Sequence record: OR352954
Origin: Escherichia phage AV124
Strand: one strand, 5' to 3'
Length of the DNA: 64,000 bases
The translations under genes and the position numbers were made by a program. The notes under the pieces were generated by a model, which saw only the letters and a program-made list of their open reading frames with translations, ran no database searches and had not been told where the DNA came from. Shown here piece by piece: positions 56,106 through 60,738 of this stretch; within the stretch, counting starts at the first letter, position 1, and each line of letters begins with the position of its first letter.

Positions 56106-56624
56106 TTAGTAAGGCCAACGGCGAGGGTATCGACGAGGAATTCCGGGTACTCCAGTCTGTGGAATTATGCCACCCACATCGAAAGGTCCACGGGAGTTTC
56201 TGTCGTATTTAACACGGTTGAACTCGTCTTCACGAACGCCCCCAACGATAACAAGGCCTCTGACCGCACTTAAGCAATCATTGACATAGTCAGGGTTTTC
56301 AAGCAGCCAGTCGAGGAAGTCTTTCCAATTCTGGTAAGGAGAACCACCTTTAATCTGGATAGTTTCATCACCAATCTTTTCAAGGCGATCCGTGATTGAT
56401 GCCTCTCCTGTGTTCACTTCCTGAAGAATCAACCAACGTACCACGTCAACAAGGGTATTGTAAATAACGTAGTAAACGGTGCATGGCGTGTTATCATCAC
56501 TGGGGTAATTAGCCTTTGATTTCTCTATTGCCAAAAAGGCAAGGATAATCTCGTCGGGTAAGACTTCCGGGGAAATGGACCCAAGGAGCAGGCGGATATA
56601 AGCAACAATTTCTTGGTCTGTCAT
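56106..56624 (-). CDS. head-tail connector protein
   Basis: ORF track, 172 aa. Confidence 0.3.
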   Translation of the reverse strand: MTDQEIVAYIRLLLGSISPEVLPDEIILAFLAIEKSKANYPSDDNTPCTVYYVIYNTLVDVVRWLILQEVNTGEASITDRLEKIGDETIQIKGGSPYQNWKDFLDWLLENPDYVNDCLSAVRGLVIVGGVREDEFNRVKYDRNSRGPFDVGGIIPQTGVPGIPRRYPRRWPY

Positions 56625-56748: not shown

Positions 56749-57147
56749 ATGAAAGCAGTAATAGCCGGTGTTATCACAGCCATCGTTGTCTCGGGTGGAC
56801 TTATCTACTTTATGAAAACCAACCCCAATATGAACAAATTCGACGATGTTTCTTCAAGCTGGTTGTCGGCTGAAGAAAAAACAGAGGCCATTCATCGGAT
56901 TGCTGGGATGAAATGCGATACAGAATTCAGAAAGGCATTCATTCCCGGCACTCTGACGACGCAGACAGGTATGTTAGATGAGATGGAAGAACAAGAAGAT
57001 AGTTTCCAAGTAATGAGAAATATGGGGATAGTGAACGGTACTGTTCTTGCAACAGGAACTTACATCTGTAAATATTATAAGGATGGCCGACAACCTTATC
57101 TTCAGGTATCTTTGAAACCGGAGGCGAGACCGCTACTAAAAAAATAA
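56749..57147 (+). CDS. membrane-anchored protein encoded opposite to the structural operon (moron)
   Basis: ATG 56749 after GAGGAG SD; N-terminal TM 'AVIAGVITAIVVSGGLIYF'; own promoter and terminator. Confidence 0.5.
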   Translation: MKAVIAGVITAIVVSGGLIYFMKTNPNMNKFDDVSSSWLSAEEKTEAIHRIAGMKCDTEFRKAFIPGTLTTQTGMLDEMEEQEDSFQVMRNMGIVNGTVLATGTYICKYYKDGRQPYLQVSLKPEARPLLKK

Positions 57148-57163
57148 GGCCCCGGAGGGCCTT
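57147..57163. terminator. bidirectional terminator
   Basis: AGGCCC-CGGA-GGGCCT hairpin between convergent stops; T-run on minus side, TTATATT on plus side. Confidence 0.5.
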
Positions 57164-57167
57164 TATA

Positions 57168-57464
57168 TTACGCCATAATGCCAGCAGCCTTCAGCTTGGA
57201 AAGAAGGGCATTAAAGTCGGTAACCAGTCCAGCTACGTCAGTCGCCACCGTGTTGGCCTGTGTTTCTGCCATTTTAACACCGCCAACCACAGAAGTGGTT
57301 GCAGCCACGGGAGCAAAAGTGGTAGGCTTGCCAGTAATGTCGGCCCATGCCACAGCTCCACCGCCTGCGACAGCGATTACATCAGCGAAGGAAATAACTC
57401 CGCCAGTTGCAAGGTCAATCAGTTTTGTACCGTAGACCAGTCCAGCTACACCAGATGTTGCCAT
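57168..57464 (-). CDS. virion protein paralogous to N-terminus of the collagen-like protein
   Basis: 'MATSGVAGLVYGTKLIDLATGG' resembles '[23 protein letters not shown]' of upstream gene. Confidence 0.4.
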   Translation of the reverse strand: MATSGVAGLVYGTKLIDLATGGVISFADVIAVAGGGAVAWADITGKPTTFAPVAATTSVVGGVKMAETQANTVATDVAGLVTDFNALLSKLKAAGIMA

Positions 57465-57476
57465 TTTTCAATCTCC

Positions 57477-58616
57477 TTAGATTGCGGGTAATTGTGTTGC
57501 AGATTCAGGTACAACCTGTTCTGCGATTAACAAAATAGTTGAAGGGATGAATGTTGATCCAACAGCGGAAATCAAACACTGAGTCCCGTTTGTCGCCATA
57601 TTGCCATTAACATCCACGCTGAACATATTGAGTAAGTTAATTGTATCCTGTTGAGATGTACCTTGTACACGAGCTGCCGTTAGTCTGTTACCGACTGAAG
57701 GTGGGAAATTTAATTCTATCGCACGGTTACTTGAACTACTCGACCAAGTTCCAATCAAATTCAGCTTAAAGTAAACGCTAAAGTTTGAGTTGTATACAAT
57801 CATCTTATCGACGGTGGTATTGAAGAGCGGAGATAAACTACCGGAATGGGGTATATTCTTCAGAAGAGTGATAAGATTTGTTTCTGGACCTATCGTTACA
57901 TCTGTAAGATTTGTCCAAGTAACTTCCACCTTTCTTCTTATACGAGATTCCGCAGGGGTTCCTGGCTCACCATCATCACCTTTTGGTCCCTCTGGACCCT
58001 GAGGTCCAGATGGGCCTTGTGGACCAGCAGGCCCTGTAGGCCCGACCGGGCCTGTAGCACCTTGTGCTGCCATTAATGCCCAGTGTGTGGCAGAAGCCGG
58101 GTCTCCAGTAGGAGGCACTCCAGTTGACGTCAGTGTGTTGAAATACAATGCCCCGTTGTAAACAGCAGCATCGTTCTCAACATATGTTGTCGTTGAGGAA
58201 TAGTTACCTTTAAACTCTAGACCCGTAGCCCCAGAAGGTCCCGTAGGTCCCTGTGGCCCCGTTGGGCCTTGAGGCCCTTGAGGGCCAGTTGGTCCTGCTG
58301 GTCCTTCTTCACCTTGAGGCCCTTCCGGGCCTTGAACTCCACGAGGTCCCTGCGGGCCTTGGGTTCCAGGTATTCCTTGGATTCCCTGAGGACCTGTAGC
58401 CCCATCCTGCACATTTATAATCGTTTTTACAGCATCTTGGTCAGCTGCTTTTAATATCTCTTTACCAATATCAGACGCATCGGTGATAGATTCAACAGTA
58501 ATCTCACCTGACCCGCCATTCATGATATCATCAAAATCGATCTTATTACCAGTCTTCTGACTAACAAGTGTTCTTCCATAAACAACACCAGCTACGCCAG
58601 CCGAAGCTATTGACAT
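57477..58616 (-). CDS. collagen-like repeat virion protein (head or tail fibre)
   Basis: Two Gly-X-Y tracts '[19 protein letters not shown]...' and '[34 protein letters not shown]'. Confidence 0.6.
57957..58403 (-). repeat. coding Gly-X-Y (collagen triple-helix type) tandem repeats
   Basis: Periodic GGNCCN nonamers on plus strand; corresponds to aa ~72-132 and ~186-220 of the 379-aa protein. Confidence 0.7.
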
Positions 58617-58632
58617 ACTCTACCTCTCAGGC

Positions 58633-59166
58633 TTAAGCTGTCAGCGCTGCCTCAAGATCAGCCAACATGTTTTCGAAGGTCTTGGTCTTCGACAGAGTAA
58701 CACCTTTGTTTGCTGCGAATTCAGCAAGTTTATCTTTGCTGCCTTTTTTATCCGCATCATCTCGTAAAGCAGAGGCTTCCGCAATAATTGCTTTCACATC
58801 GGGGTTTACTTGCTCATTGGCTTTTGCATTATCTTCTATAACCTGTGCAACCACGGTTTCTTCAACCTTTTGTTTAGCCACTGACGACTTAACATCAGAA
58901 GGTGGTGTAATCTCACCATTAAAGAATACGATAAAGTTGCCCATTCTCAGGGTGGAGGCCTTAGTATCTACAGGAAGACCTGACAGGTCTGCAAGTTCCT
59001 GGAAGAACTCCATGAAAGAACGAAAAGCCTTCATTTGCTTACCAAGGGCGAATCCATTTAGGGGTAAGCGGCTTGAAGCACTAATGTTCAATTCGGGAAT
59101 GTATGCACCAAAGAACTTGAAAAGCTCTACCTTGTTCGGGAAAATGCGATAATTTTGATTTGCCAT
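58633..59166 (-). CDS. hypothetical virion protein
   Basis: ATG 59166 (MANQNYRIF...) after AAGGAG; downstream of capsid terminator. Confidence 0.4.
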   Translation of the reverse strand: MANQNYRIFPNKVELFKFFGAYIPELNISASSRLPLNGFALGKQMKAFRSFMEFFQELADLSGLPVDTKASTLRMGNFIVFFNGEITPPSDVKSSVAKQKVEETVVAQVIEDNAKANEQVNPDVKAIIAEASALRDDADKKGSKDKLAEFAANKGVTLSKTKTFENMLADLEAALTA

Positions 59167-59229
59167 AGAATCTCCTTTGATCCTCATAAACCTCTTGACA
59201 TATAAGATCACTATGCTAATCTTAAAATG

Positions 59230-59260
59230 AAAAAAGGGAGAGGTGATTAACACCTCCCCC
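59230..59260 (-). terminator. intrinsic terminator after major capsid gene (minus strand)
   Basis: 10-bp stem (one mismatch) GGGGGAGGTG/CACCTCTCCC with TTAAT loop, then TTTTTT on minus strand. Confidence 0.55.
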
Positions 59261-59284
59261 TCTTAGAGGTAGCTTTAAGCTATA

Positions 59285-60298
59285 TTACGCGAAAGTACCA
59301 GTCAGTTTAACAACCAGCTCTGGGCGGCAGTTAACTGTCAGGAAGGAAGTTTCAGACTCTACCTTCTCTTCACGCAGGTAAGCAGAAGATTTGTACCACA
59401 GGTACAGTTCTTGTGCCGGAGTATTCGCTTCACGAACATCATCTGCTGGCGCATAGTGGATCTGGAACATGTTGTCGATACCGCGCGGCAGCATGTAAGC
59501 TTCACCGTCCGGGATGTAACCGGAGATATCTTCGATGTACAGAACGTTTTTGTGAACGAAGGAACGGTTGTTAGCGTTTTCCTGACCTTCACCAAGACGA
59601 CGACGCAGCGGCTCTTGAGTAGAGCTGTAGTATTGGTATGCGTTCATGATCAGCGGGTGAGCGATGAAAGCAGAGAACCATTTACGAGAAGCCAGGACTA
59701 CGATGTCGTAGTTGTTTCCGTTGTCACCAGCGTTGTCGATGATGAATGCACGACCATCGTTTTCGAGCAGGTCAGACGGGTCAACTGCAACGTCAGTGAA
59801 ATCTACGTTAACAACTTCCTGGGTAACACCCCATTCGGTGAAGTAGTTATACTGAGCGGTCGGGTCCTGCGGTGCCCAAGATTTACCCATGATTGCCTGA
59901 AGCATTGCTTTTTCTTTAAGCTGTTCATGAGAAATACGGATACGACGAACAACACGTTCAACTACGTCCTGTACAGATTTAGGAGCATCCGCAGTGAAAT
60001 ATTTACGGAAGTTCTGTACGTCTGCCGGAGTGATCTGACGATCCAGCGGGAAGAACGGGATGTTGAAGTTTTTCAGTTGGGCCTTTTCAGTACCAACGTA
60101 GTTACGTTCACCCTGACGACGACGAGCTGGGAAGTCGGTTACAACTTCGTCAACACGCTCGATCTGGGCGATAGTAGAGACACCGTGATAAGCCTCGAAA
60201 AGGTTCATGTTGGTGATCATACGGTACTGACGAGGTACGATTTCCAGAGTTGCGCCTAGATCGACGATCTGGAAATCATTAGTGCGTACTACTGCCAT
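59285..60298 (-). CDS. major capsid protein (lambda gpE-like family suspected)
   Basis: 337 aa; follows scaffold and decoration genes; followed by strong terminator; pattern resembles Phage_cap_E proteins. Confidence 0.6.
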   Translation of the reverse strand: MAVVRTNDFQIVDLGATLEIVPRQYRMITNMNLFEAYHGVSTIAQIERVDEVVTDFPARRRQGERNYVGTEKAQLKNFNIPFFPLDRQITPADVQNFRKYFTADAPKSVQDVVERVVRRIRISHEQLKEKAMLQAIMGKSWAPQDPTAQYNYFTEWGVTQEVVNVDFTDVAVDPSDLLENDGRAFIIDNAGDNGNNYDIVVLASRKWFSAFIAHPLIMNAYQYYSSTQEPLRRRLGEGQENANNRSFVHKNVLYIEDISGYIPDGEAYMLPRGIDNMFQIHYAPADDVREANTPAQELYLWYKSSAYLREEKVESETSFLTVNCRPELVVKLTGTFA

Positions 60299-60318
60299 TA
60301 TTTTCTCCTTGGTGTAGA

Positions 60319-60738
60319 TTAGATAGACGTTACTGGGATCTCAACGGAGCCGTCGTAATATTTATCAGTGATCTTCAGACCTTTGGCCTCAAGAGCAGCG
60401 ATAGCAGCAGCGTTGATAGCAGTAGTACCGTCAGCAAAGAACAGTTTGGATTTGTTCAGGGTCAGACCACGAACAGCCACAACGAAGTTGTATTTAGTAC
60501 CAACAACAAACTCACGAGGAGCATCGTATGCAGGAACCAAATCGCGGTCGGTGATTACACCAAATGCGCTTGCAGCGTCGGAAGTTGCAGCCAGAGTACC
60601 ATCAGACTTGACGATCATCCCAGCCTTCAGCCCTGCGGAATAAGTGATTTCCATTTCCAGGAAGCTGTAGCCCTGATCAGAAGAATCAACTTTACCCAGG
60701 ACGATGTCAGAGTAGTACCCTTGAATCGGATTAGCCAT
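60319..60738 (-). CDS. head decoration protein (gpD-like)
   Basis: 139 aa immediately upstream of capsid gene; 'GTLAATSDAASAFGVI' resembles gpD-type core. Confidence 0.4.
   Translation of the reverse strand: MANPIQGYYSDIVLGKVDSSDQGYSFLEMEITYSAGLKAGMIVKSDGTLAATSDAASAFGVITDRDLVPAYDAPREFVVGTKYNFVVAVRGLTLNKSKLFFADGTTAINAAAIAALEAKGLKITDKYYDGSVEIPVTSI

Follow-up and report, generated by a model that had tools for sequence, protein, structure and literature searches.

Two adjacent genes on the minus strand of the window (the whole stretch of 64,000 nucleotides that was analysed) raise the question of what their products build on the virion and where they dock. One encodes a 379-aa protein with collagen-like repeats, and the other encodes a 98-aa protein that resembles the first at its N-terminus. 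The source of the window is a Mydovirus-like (Vequintavirinae) myophage. The answer we prefer is a pair of alternative head fibres of this Vequintavirinae myophage, both trimeric and with a shared anchor. We give this model as a whole a probability of about 0.6.

Gene Organization of the Fibre Slot

The gene of the putative long head fibre (379 aa) is located at 57477..58616 (-), and its product matches the Pfam families Collagen (4e-15) and Phage_tail_NK (2.2e-29). The gene of the putative short head fibre (98 aa) is located at 57168..57464 (-). Both open reading frames are present on the minus strand where the preliminary description had placed them, each with a Shine-Dalgarno site read off the sequence. 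These are GAGAGG at 58623..58628 (-) for the 379-aa gene and AAGGAG at 57473..57478 (-) for the 98-aa gene; the latter overlaps the stop codon of the 379-aa gene.

On its upstream side, the slot is bordered by an Inh_N-like gene of 177 aa at 58633..59166 (-) (phrog_3259, 6e-62), whose orthologues carry PF26097. A terminator with a 14-bp stem is found at 59232-59264, inside the longer 206-aa reading of this gene, and the ATG at 59166 is therefore the likely start. The downstream border is a phiTE-type head-tail adaptor gene at 56106..56624 (-) (phrog_2663; PF26075 on the orthologues). The genes for the major capsid protein (MCP; 59285..60298 (-); PF03864, 5e-40) and the trimeric decoration protein DEC (60319..60738 (-)) together span 59285..60738 (-). 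Their products are 56% and 47% identical to the MCP and DEC of phiTE, respectively, and the T=13 capsid structure of phiTE has been solved (PMC11972413).

An intrinsic terminator, formed by the hairpin AAGGCCCTCCGGGGCCTT and a run of T behind it, is seen at 57146..57163 (-). It is predicted to be the end of the capsid/fibre transcription unit, and it is common to a convergent plus-strand membrane-protein gene as well. In phiTE, a terminator is annotated at the corresponding position behind the gene for pTE217.

Domains of the Putative Long Fibre

The anchor module of the 379-aa protein is followed by a Gly-rich linker with a short helical motif (aa 33-71; 58404..58520 (-)). The same motif precedes collagen in the 446-aa and 500-aa paralogues of locus L004 and the 592-aa paralogue of locus L030. 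The linker is an optional module, missing in the 72%-identical relative P0002. Residues 1-72 have no match in Pfam, and in the AF2 model the linker has merely a short helix (aa 50-56) with low confidence. The AF2 run was of a monomer; it gives no usable model of the anchor, the linker or the collagen, and is silent on the trimer.

Two uninterrupted Gly-X-Y tracts come next. Tract 1 (aa 72-134; 58215..58403 (-); PF01391) consists of 21 triplets, or 20 if the final G-L-E is left out, and has Pro at 13 of the 21 X positions. Tract 2 (aa 186-221; 57954..58061 (-)) consists of 12 triplets by count. The Pfam Collagen score of the protein is 55.7 bits against a cut-off of 27.2, and the longest Gly-X-Y run in 10,000 shuffles of the protein is at most seven triplets. 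The non-collagenous segments are aa 1-71, 135-185 and 222-379. The tracts of about 20 and 12 triplets with non-collagenous flanks that had been described earlier are thus borne out.

The domain between the tracts (aa 135-185; 58062..58214 (-)) is a small beta-rich, CBM5/12-like domain, assigned by a weak Pfam match and by homologues. The profile PF02839 gives 14.3 bits here, below its cut-off of 26.2 (E 0.042), while the homologous domain of the L004 446-aa paralogue passes the cut-off with 28.7 bits, and most collagen homologues are annotated with PF02839. Its AF2 pLDDT is 74-85. It is 46% identical (E 6e-14) to the corresponding domain of the virion protein W70_129.

The C-terminal part (aa 222-379, domain 224-367; 57477..57953 (-) with the stop codon) is a Sf6-type knob. 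PF16532 (Phage_tail_NK) matches it with 102.7 bits against a cut-off of 27. Among PDB sequences it matches 3rwn (E 2.5e-28) and also 4k6b, and its AF2 model matches 3rwn in Foldseek with E 4.5e-14 and a TM-score of 0.77. The next Foldseek matches are TNF-like lectins, C1q heads and PRD1 P5. Knobs of this type are trimeric in crystals and hold L-glutamate between the subunits. The residues in contact with L-glutamate are kept (E231, K284, S333 and D335, corresponding to E181, K235, S283 and D285 of HS1). The profile score, the jelly-roll fold and these inter-subunit contact residues all agree with the Sf6 type, and the domain is probably a TNF/C1q-like jelly-roll of the trimeric kind. Since a trimeric-type knob flanks the collagen tracts, we infer that they form a trimeric triple helix. 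The trimerization predicted in the preliminary description is in this way supported by the conserved glutamate pocket behind the collagen.

An identity as a P22/Sf6 tail needle (gp26/gp9) was rejected. The PDB and Phage_tail_NK matches cover only aa 224-367, the protein starts with the head-fibre anchor, and its shaft consists of collagen in place of a coiled coil.

The closest relatives of the 379-aa protein are P0001 (98% identity) and P0002 (72%), both from metagenome assemblies. Among 50,697 deposited phage genomes a full-length match is absent, and parts of the protein are common in tail fibres. This would fit a gene that is a recent mosaic of tail-fibre fragments, non-functional or poorly expressed, a passenger cassette whose product is absent from virions. 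We consider this very improbable, because the gene has an intact reading frame, is preceded by a good ribosome-binding site and is tightly coupled to its downstream neighbour. Besides, the 98%- and 72%-identical full-length copies come from independent assemblies and carry substitutions without frame disruption, the functional knob residues are conserved, and W70_129, which has the same architecture, is assembled into virions.

The Putative Short Fibre

The 98-aa protein consists of an anchor (aa 1-37; 57354-57464 (-)) and a phi29-type C-terminal module (aa 41-98; 57171-57344 (-)). The module matches positions 222-277 of the 277 positions of PF11133 with 43 bits against a cut-off of 24.6; the 379-aa protein has no PF11133 match in Pfam. 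In the PDB, the 98-aa protein matches B2 gp45 (6.7e-12), crAss001 gp21 (7qof_l; 1.1e-6) and phi29 gp8.5 (1e-5). Its orthologues are annotated as "head fiber protein" in about 30 Mydovirus genomes. The layout, a short N-terminal segment and a phi29-type C-terminal module in about 97 aa, is that of crAss001 gp21. It is not the full layout of phi29 gp8.5, as only the last ~55 profile positions are matched and the N-terminus is an unrelated 35-aa anchor. Judged by its sequence, the 98-aa protein is a separate head fibre of the phi29/crAss001-gp21 type. The earlier term "short N-terminal paralogue" is imprecise: the protein is no truncated copy and has its own, different C-terminal domain.

The Shared N-Terminal Anchor

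The N-termini of the two proteins are identical at 18 of 44 positions (BLASTP E 5e-7). The 98-aa protein alone has the exact motif SGVAGLVYG, from which the relationship was first proposed; in the 379-aa protein it reads AGVAGVVYG (seven of nine). The similarity itself is real and longer than the motif. It comprises ~35 aa at the protein start with the pattern G-x-x-G-h-h-Y/T-G-x-x-L-h-D-x-x-T-G-x-x-I-x-h-x-D/E-h, then a Gly-rich linker. In the 379-aa protein the module corresponds to aa 1-32 (58521..58616 (-)). Here we define it as the "Vequintavirinae head-fibre anchor family". The anchor profile matches the 379-aa protein with E 1.4e-19 and the 98-aa protein with E 3.2e-15. A second profile, built mostly from window sequences and database matches, gives 1.4e-21 and 2.7e-17. 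Within the window, both profiles match these two genes only.

Thirty-one related loci were gathered via the phiTE-type adaptor gene. In about 5,600 ORFs from about 40 related loci, the anchor is seen solely at the N-termini of genes between the capsid and adaptor genes, and it is present at 26 of these loci. The family profiles match 43 ORFs at residues 1-45 with E-values from 1e-19 to 4e-6, all of them slot genes, and the anchor profile finds no further match up to E 10 among 5,417 ORFs, a restriction that the second profile reproduces. All 43 ORFs of the 26 loci, as well as the pair in the window, are on the same strand between the Inh_N-like and adaptor genes. Among 1.84 billion representative proteins the profile matches 31, nearly all at residues 1-40. 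Another protein search with the profile returned four short fragments only and is uninformative. Neither the N-terminal 72 aa nor a profile of 20 anchor sequences gave a meaningful match among PDB sequences.

The anchor is fused to different partners across the loci: collagen of 10-174 triplets, other tips, and an EPS depolymerase in the Erwinia phages Hena1 (gp219) and pEp_SNUABM_01. B2 gp45 was considered as a further carrier of the anchor and rejected, because the N-terminus of SP154 WIC41542, a close homologue of gp45, is unrelated to the anchor. A homologue of the module with an unrelated N-terminus on another capsid is consistent with the N-terminus being the capsid-specific part.

Variation Downstream of the Anchor

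The slot is hypervariable among relatives. VLCpiM5b, which has a 210-aa long fibre, is 97% and 96% identical to the window in DNA sequence on either side of the distal part of the 379-aa gene. The 97% identity stops at 58525, just past the anchor module, and there is no similarity from codon ~31 of the 379-aa gene to its stop codon. In phage Mydo the 379-aa gene is cleanly missing. The long fibre is lacking in the close relatives Mydo, KB57 and others, and the slot is empty in remoter relatives. Two types of knob, ~50% identical, are seen among the relatives.

The repeat DNA had been considered a likely hotspot for length variation. At the DNA level this idea is weak: TRF finds only 18 bp × 2.3 copies with a 75% match, and the triplet number of the 379-aa protein is unchanged in a relative with 98% identity. 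A slippage-prone tandem repeat is ruled out by the TRF result, by the longest exact repeat of only 13 bp, and by the mixed Gly and Pro codons. The triplet number does vary across relatives, from 10 to 174, but via replacement of all that lies downstream of the anchor and not via slippage. As the alignments indicate, the length differences come from cassette exchange just after the anchor.

Virion Presence and Docking Site

Are these proteins part of the virion? Two anchor-bearing homologues, W70_129 and pTE217, are found in purified virions and support the earlier claim of a virion protein. W70_129, which shares the architecture of the 379-aa protein, is represented by 728 spectra and visible on SDS-PAGE (PMC11370258). 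These counts indicate presence only, because tail fibres score as high; an argument on copy number from them was dropped for this reason. pTE217 is the fifth most abundant virion protein of phiTE and was assigned, by its abundance in mass spectrometry, to the "Pagoda" density at the hexamer centres, which is unmodelled (PMC11972413). The Pagoda is bound in several rotated orientations, which a trimer on a site of sixfold symmetry would be expected to show, and DEC occupies the threefold sites (PMC11972413). The gene for pTE217 occupies the equivalent slot ahead of the terminator, and its product carries the anchor with E 9.6e-4 in a leave-clade-out HMM (noise from E 1.1), a low score of 17 bits. 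The phiTE paper describes pTE217 as without detectable homology to other hexamer-centre proteins (PMC11972413); our anchor profile would link it to the head-fibre family. The papers on the phi92 and Bas63 structures contain nothing on head fibres or collagen.

A docking site on the capsid or neck common to both proteins had been suggested. The common site is favoured by the shared, lineage-restricted and strictly N-terminal module, found only in the capsid-to-adaptor slot. The anchor probably docks at the hexamer centres of the capsid rather than at the neck.

The genes that follow directly downstream of the slot are those for the head-tail adaptor, the neck and the tail terminator. It can be speculated from this position that the anchor docks at the neck or collar, like a whisker (cf. 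T4 fibritin), or at the tail, and that the 379-aa protein is a low-copy side fibre positioning the tail. EPS depolymerases normally sit on the tail. That the anchor is fused to such an enzyme would fit docking at the neck or at another site, and anchor-bearing relatives also include tail-fibre-like proteins. PHROG and GenBank label relatives as "tail fiber" or "tail needle knob", and no PDB sequence match places the anchor on a capsid. On the other hand, the slot shares a transcription unit with the capsid genes and has a terminator of its own at its end, and the phiTE paper has no mention of "whisker", "collar" or pTE214-216 (PMC11972413). We regard docking at the neck or tail as unlikely; if it were true, the long fibre would be an ordinary side fibre.

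Docking at hexamer centres, which we favour, is also compatible with a cement function. The fibres would mainly help the hexamers to withstand internal pressure; their collagen and knob would be incidental, or would serve dispersal or anti-aggregation in place of host adhesion. Many hexamer-centre decoration proteins do stabilize capsids (reviewed in PMC7602432), and the function of gp45 was left open by the authors of the B2 structure (PMC11654681). However, DEC already forms a cementing lattice, and the rapid exchange of tips, the two knob types and the wide range of triplet numbers fit surface recognition better. Because Mydo, KB57 and other close relatives lack the long fibre and remoter ones have an empty slot, the long fibre appears dispensable for capsid integrity. 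A cement role is thus improbable, even more so than docking at the neck. An adhesin role of the long fibre, which would help the virus stick to its host, is probable.

Proposed Assembly and Function

In the preferred model of two alternative head fibres, three long-fibre chains would associate via the knob, with its conserved inter-subunit glutamate pocket. The collagen tracts would then zip to a triple helix, a stalk of ~28 nm at 0.286 nm per residue in a fibre of ~35-40 nm. The three N-terminal anchors would plug a pocket at the centre of an MCP hexamer of the T=13 head, at up to 120 sites, and the DEC trimer would take the threefold positions. With one anchor and hexamer-centre pockets, the short and long fibres would either be rivals for the two classes of hexamer or divide them between themselves.

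For the CBM-like domain and the knob at the distal end, surface glycans (capsule, LPS or mucus) are possible targets of weak, multivalent binding, which is suggested by the fold of the two domains only. Such contacts could raise the rate of host encounter and would be dispensable for DNA injection. The anchor-coding 5' end could serve as a constant homology arm, by which phages would exchange the complete distal part through recombination.

A wider and tentative reading, with the odds somewhat against it, is that the ~35-residue module is a general "hexon-pocket plug" of Vequintavirinae. Each head would carry up to ~120 interchangeable trimeric modules and would, in addition to the tail, take part in the recognition or digestion of the host capsule. 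Two anchor subtypes would direct the fibres to one or the other hexamer class of the T=13 shell. The modules meant here are phi29-type tips, C1q-like collagen-knob adhesins with 10 to 174 triplets, and the EPS depolymerase of the Erwinia phages.

Phage head fibres are already known as decoration and are usually treated as minor ornaments; the pair in the window is a modular version. One short docking peptide appears to be reused, within one slot prone to recombination, for distal modules that differ greatly. This offers a testable handle on the tuning of reversible adsorption in large Klebsiella, E. coli and Erwinia myophages with capsule-covered hosts, and on which protein makes the unmodelled hexamer density of phiTE. 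The anchor peptide with a trimeric cargo might be a display scaffold for phage engineering, possibly with ~120 sites per capsid. In this subfamily, a protein labelled "tail fiber", "tail needle knob" or "EPS depolymerase" is not necessarily located on the tail.

Comparison with Known Fibres

Within the subfamily, pTE217 shares the slot before a terminator and the adaptor gene and has a homologous N-terminal module; it differs in its length (164 aa) and its other, non-collagen C-terminal part. W70_129 (Escherichia phage W70, OP778610) is in the same slot and consists of anchor, collagen, CBM5/12-like domain, collagen and globular C-terminus, as does the 379-aa protein, and it varies between close relatives. 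It is different in being 527 aa long, with many more triplets, another globular end in place of the Sf6 knob, and another anchor subtype. Phage W70 is without the short phi29-type fibre.

crAss001 likewise has a pair of dissimilar small fibre proteins, the trimeric gp21 and the dimeric gp29, in the pockets at the centres of two hexon classes (PMC10172136; PDB 7qof). The N-terminal ~38 residues of gp21 bind the hexon pocket, and residues 42-97 are a phi29 gp8.5-type module (PMC10172136). This module matches residues 39-97 of the 98-aa protein at the E-value given above, while the anchor has no sequence similarity to residues 1-38 of gp21. The N-termini of the two crAss001 fibres are unrelated, their oligomeric states differ, and their T=9 capsid has two hexon types, whereas the window pair has one homologous anchor (41% identity) and presumably a T=13 capsid. 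The crAss001 fibres are without collagen or knob.

The phi29 fibre gp8.5 (3qc7) is a trimeric, dispensable capsid fibre that shares homology over its last ~55 residues with the C-terminal end of the 98-aa protein. Its base, a beta-tulip, binds quasi-threefold sites, and its shaft is a helix-turn-helix supercoil; both features are missing from the window fibres. SPP1 gp12 is ~6.6 kDa with ~8 triplets and is not known to carry distal domains. The 379-aa protein, compared here by description only, has 33 triplets in two tracts with CBM-like and knob domains. SPP1 gp12 is a collagen-like trimer at the quasi-sixfold hexamer centre, bound reversibly, and host adhesion has been proposed for it (PMC7602432). 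B2 gp45 is a homotrimer on quasi-sixfold axes (PMC11654681).

The Sf6/HS1 knob (C-terminal domain of gp9) is homologous to that of the 379-aa protein, with ~39-45% identity and the same predicted fold. The Sf6 knob tips a coiled-coil needle plugging the tail channel, whereas the knob of the window tips a collagen stalk on a head-fibre anchor; the 379-aa protein has neither the gp26/gp9 N-terminal domain nor a coiled coil. When the Sf6 knob was put in place of the P22 needle tip, host specificity was unchanged (PMC3741392).

A collagen stalk with a trimeric jelly-roll head is also the architecture of C1q, adiponectin, and collagens VIII and X. The likeness to C1q/TNF is at the fold level only, with 7-15% identity, and lends no support to a common descent of the architecture. 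In Foldseek, the AF2 knob model matches the C1q heads and the TNF-like lectins PLTL and BC2L-C with E-values of ~1e-4 to 7e-4.

Organization of the Fibre Genes

Two fibre genes lie on the minus strand: one for the collagen-like 379-aa protein (57477–58616) and one for the 98-aa protein (57168–57464). Each is preceded by its own Shine-Dalgarno site, and that of the 98-aa gene, AAGGAG, overlaps the stop codon of the 379-aa gene. The order on the minus strand is the decoration protein DEC (60319–60738), the major capsid protein MCP (59285–60298), a strong hairpin, the Inh_N-like gene (58633–59166), the 379-aa gene, the 98-aa gene and a terminator at 57146–57163, formed by a GC-rich hairpin and a run of T. 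Past the terminator come a convergent membrane-protein gene on the plus strand (56749–57147), then the phiTE-type head-tail adaptor gene (56106–56624, minus strand) and neck genes. The predicted 132-aa membrane protein belongs to phrog_11434 ("moron" category), and its gene and the fibre operon end at one bidirectional terminator. Mydovirus, Seunavirus and 4MG-type loci have this gene; phiTE-type and Erwinia-phage loci lack it.

The hairpin directly 3' of the MCP gene (59232–59264, minus strand) has a terminator-like 14-bp stem. Because it falls within the mechanically called 206-aa ORF (58633–59253), the ATG at 59166 is the probable start of the Inh_N-like gene (177 aa, MANQNY...). A terminator is annotated at the corresponding place in phiTE, which suggests that transcription is attenuated between the MCP gene and those for the fibres.

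The flanking DNA matches Mydovirus phages of Klebsiella (Vequintavirinae, genomes of about 145 kb) at 94–97% identity. An ARAGORN scan of the 64-kb window detected neither tRNA nor tmRNA genes; related Vequintavirinae genomes have several tRNAs elsewhere. MCP shares 56% and DEC 47% identity with their counterparts in phage phiTE; in the solved phiTE capsid, a T=13 shell, DEC trimers occupy the threefold and quasi-threefold axes (PMC11972413).

The Shared N-Terminal Anchor

The N-termini of the two proteins are homologous (18/44 identical, E 5e-7), as the preliminary description proposed from a shared motif, although SGVAGLVYG is exact only in the 98-aa protein and reads AGVAGVVYG in the 379-aa protein. 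A profile of eight N-termini was searched against 5,417 ORFs, in six frames, from 31 loci collected via the adaptor protein, supplemented by loci from metagenomes and GenBank. It matched 43 ORFs (E 1e-19 to 4e-6) and none of the others at E up to 10. The match starts within the first ~18 residues of the stop-to-stop ORF in all 43, always upstream of the adaptor gene and on its strand, and between the Inh_N-like gene and the adaptor wherever the former can be located. In the window only the 379-aa and 98-aa genes match. The same set was returned by a second profile, built with phiTE-type sequences left out; the only non-training matches of the leave-clade-out profile are the phiTE-type proteins, all of which were recovered (pTE217 at E 9.6e-4, noise from E 1.1). 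Among 1.84 billion representative proteins the anchor profile found only 31, nearly all at residues 1–40, and among solved structures (PDB) none. Judged by sequence, the shared N-terminus is the anchor that defines the family.

The slot between the Inh_N-like and adaptor genes ranges from empty to 8.3 kb, with up to three anchor genes. In eight metagenomic relatives (L017–L023 and L036) the two bordering genes are adjacent, the slot being at most 88 bp with no fibre gene, which shows that the entire fibre cassette is dispensable.

Domains of the Two Proteins

The two uninterrupted Gly-X-Y tracts described before are present in the 379-aa protein, with 21 triplets at aa 72–134 and 12 at aa 186–221; 10,000 shuffles of the protein gave runs of at most 7 triplets. 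By standard collagen geometry the two tracts would together span ~28 nm. The tracts are preceded by a Gly-rich linker with a short helical motif (aa 33–71), also seen before collagen in some paralogues and missing in a 72%-identical relative. Between them is a small beta domain (aa 135–185), predicted with confidence by AF2 and weakly similar to CBM5/12 (Pfam, E 0.042); its homologue in a paralogue exceeds the Pfam threshold, and PF02839 is annotated on the corresponding domain of most collagen homologues. Residues 224–367 form an Sf6-type tail-needle knob (PF16532, 102.7 bits; PDB 3rwn, E 2.5e-28), whose AF2 model fits 3rwn with TM 0.77, followed by TNF-like lectins, C1q heads and PRD1 P5. 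In the known knob, L-glutamate is held between subunits by four residues (PMC3741392); all four are kept here (E231, K284, S333 and D335), which argues for a genuine knob trimer. The overall design resembles C1q, in which a trimeric jelly-roll head likewise tops a collagen stalk.

In the 98-aa protein, aa 41–98 match the final 55 positions of PF11133, the family of phi29 head fibres (43 bits), and, among solved structures, B2 gp45 (E 6.7e-12), crAss001 gp21 (E 1.1e-6) and phi29 gp8.5. B2 gp45 is a homotrimer on quasi-sixfold axes (PMC11654681). The 97-aa crAss001 gp21 is also a trimer, with residues 1–38 in the hexon-centre pocket and the same phi29-type module at residues 42–97; the other hexon class is taken by a second fibre, gp29 (PMC10172136). 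SP154 WIC41542, a close homologue of B2 gp45, has an unrelated N-terminus. The C-terminal module is therefore mobile, and capsid specificity appears to lie in the N-terminus.

The ORFs, the tracts and the N-terminal alignment confirm the original observation. This is a real, intact, modular pair of virion fibre genes. The most likely reading of the 379-aa protein is a trimeric fibre on a collagen stalk that shares its docking module with the 98-aa head fibre. Precedents exist for head fibres, for two fibres on one capsid, for collagen-like binders of hexamers and for mobile knob tips. Apparently undescribed so far are the cassette system built on a shared anchor, the link of this system to the phiTE Pagoda protein, and the combination of domains that recalls C1q.

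Location on the Virion

The anchor-bearing phiTE protein pTE217 (L006:20376–20870) is encoded in the same slot, ahead of a terminator. It ranks fifth in abundance among phiTE virion proteins and was assigned to "Pagoda", an unmodelled density at hexamer centres, which is disordered at the interface as if there were several rotated binding positions (PMC11972413). Such disorder would be expected of a trimer on a sixfold site. The phiTE paper reported undetectable homology between the putative Pagoda protein and other hexamer-centre proteins (PMC11972413); its first ~35 residues belong to the anchor family, alongside those of proteins annotated as head fibres in Mydovirus, Seunavirus and related genera. 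W70_129 of phage W70 has the layout of the 379-aa protein (anchor E 4e-8; middle domain 46% identical) and is variable among close relatives. On SDS-PAGE it can be seen among the virion proteins (PMC11370258), its spectrum count being proof of presence only. SPP1 gp12, a collagen-like trimer on hexamer centres, is a precedent (PMC7602432).

The anchor could possibly dock at the neck or tail rather than on capsid hexamers, since the slot adjoins neck genes and the anchor is fused to an EPS depolymerase in Erwinia phages Hena1 and pEp_SNUABM_01 (PDB 6tgf, E 1.5e-66; phrog_4250, E 6e-167). This 858-aa protein (L016:7314–9890, Hena1 gp219, NC_048828 67358–69934; L015:7319–9898) ends in an Ig/Hoc-like domain, and the adjoining "head fiber protein" has the same anchor. 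Either a depolymerase sits on the capsid surface or the anchor docks elsewhere than on hexamers. Of the earlier proposal of one docking site on the capsid or neck, the common module stands, with hexamer centres the most likely place; there the 379-aa fibre most likely acts as a low-affinity adhesin.

Exchange behind the Anchor

Besides the depolymerase, the anchor carries phi29-type tips, collagen that begins directly behind it (with 10, 12, 13, 14, 16, 18, 24, 26, 21+12, 28+12 and up to 174 triplets), collagen with a CBM-like domain and further collagen before various globular ends, or a tail-fibre-like region. The repeat DNA had been considered a likely hotspot of length variation, which is not borne out at the DNA level. 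A strong tandem repeat is ruled out by TRF (18 bp × 2.3 copies at 75% match; 9 bp × 3.2 copies), by the longest exact repeat of 13 bp and by mixed Gly and Pro codons. A 98%-identical relative has equal triplet numbers. Compared with VLCpiM5b, the DNA is 97% identical down to 58525 (about codon 31), then unalignable as far as 57481, from where identity is 96%; phage Mydo cleanly lacks the 379-aa gene. The differences in length come from replacement, and the anchor-coding segment thus acts like a constant arm for cassette exchange.

Many relatives also have in the slot a giant collagen-rich protein without the anchor (870–1117 aa, up to about 1,270 aa in W70; about 86–108 Gly-X-Y triplets), followed by a conserved 211–216-aa partner: L003:2685–5991, L004:1205–6139, L006:16386–20374 (phiTE_215/216) and L042:7003–11484 (W70_131/130). 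The pair is absent from the window. The giant protein of W70 has the top spectrum count of all virion proteins, 2032. The Sf6-type knob is also found on small (~230-aa) proteins of Citrobacter phage Margaery (gp129, L039:3243–3941) and Klebsiella phage Carvaje (gp015, L040:3749–4453). Such proteins occur in T4-like myophages, on the opposite strand amid early-type genes, and in a siphophage, beside the terminase gene; in these phages the label "tail needle knob" is uninformative on location.
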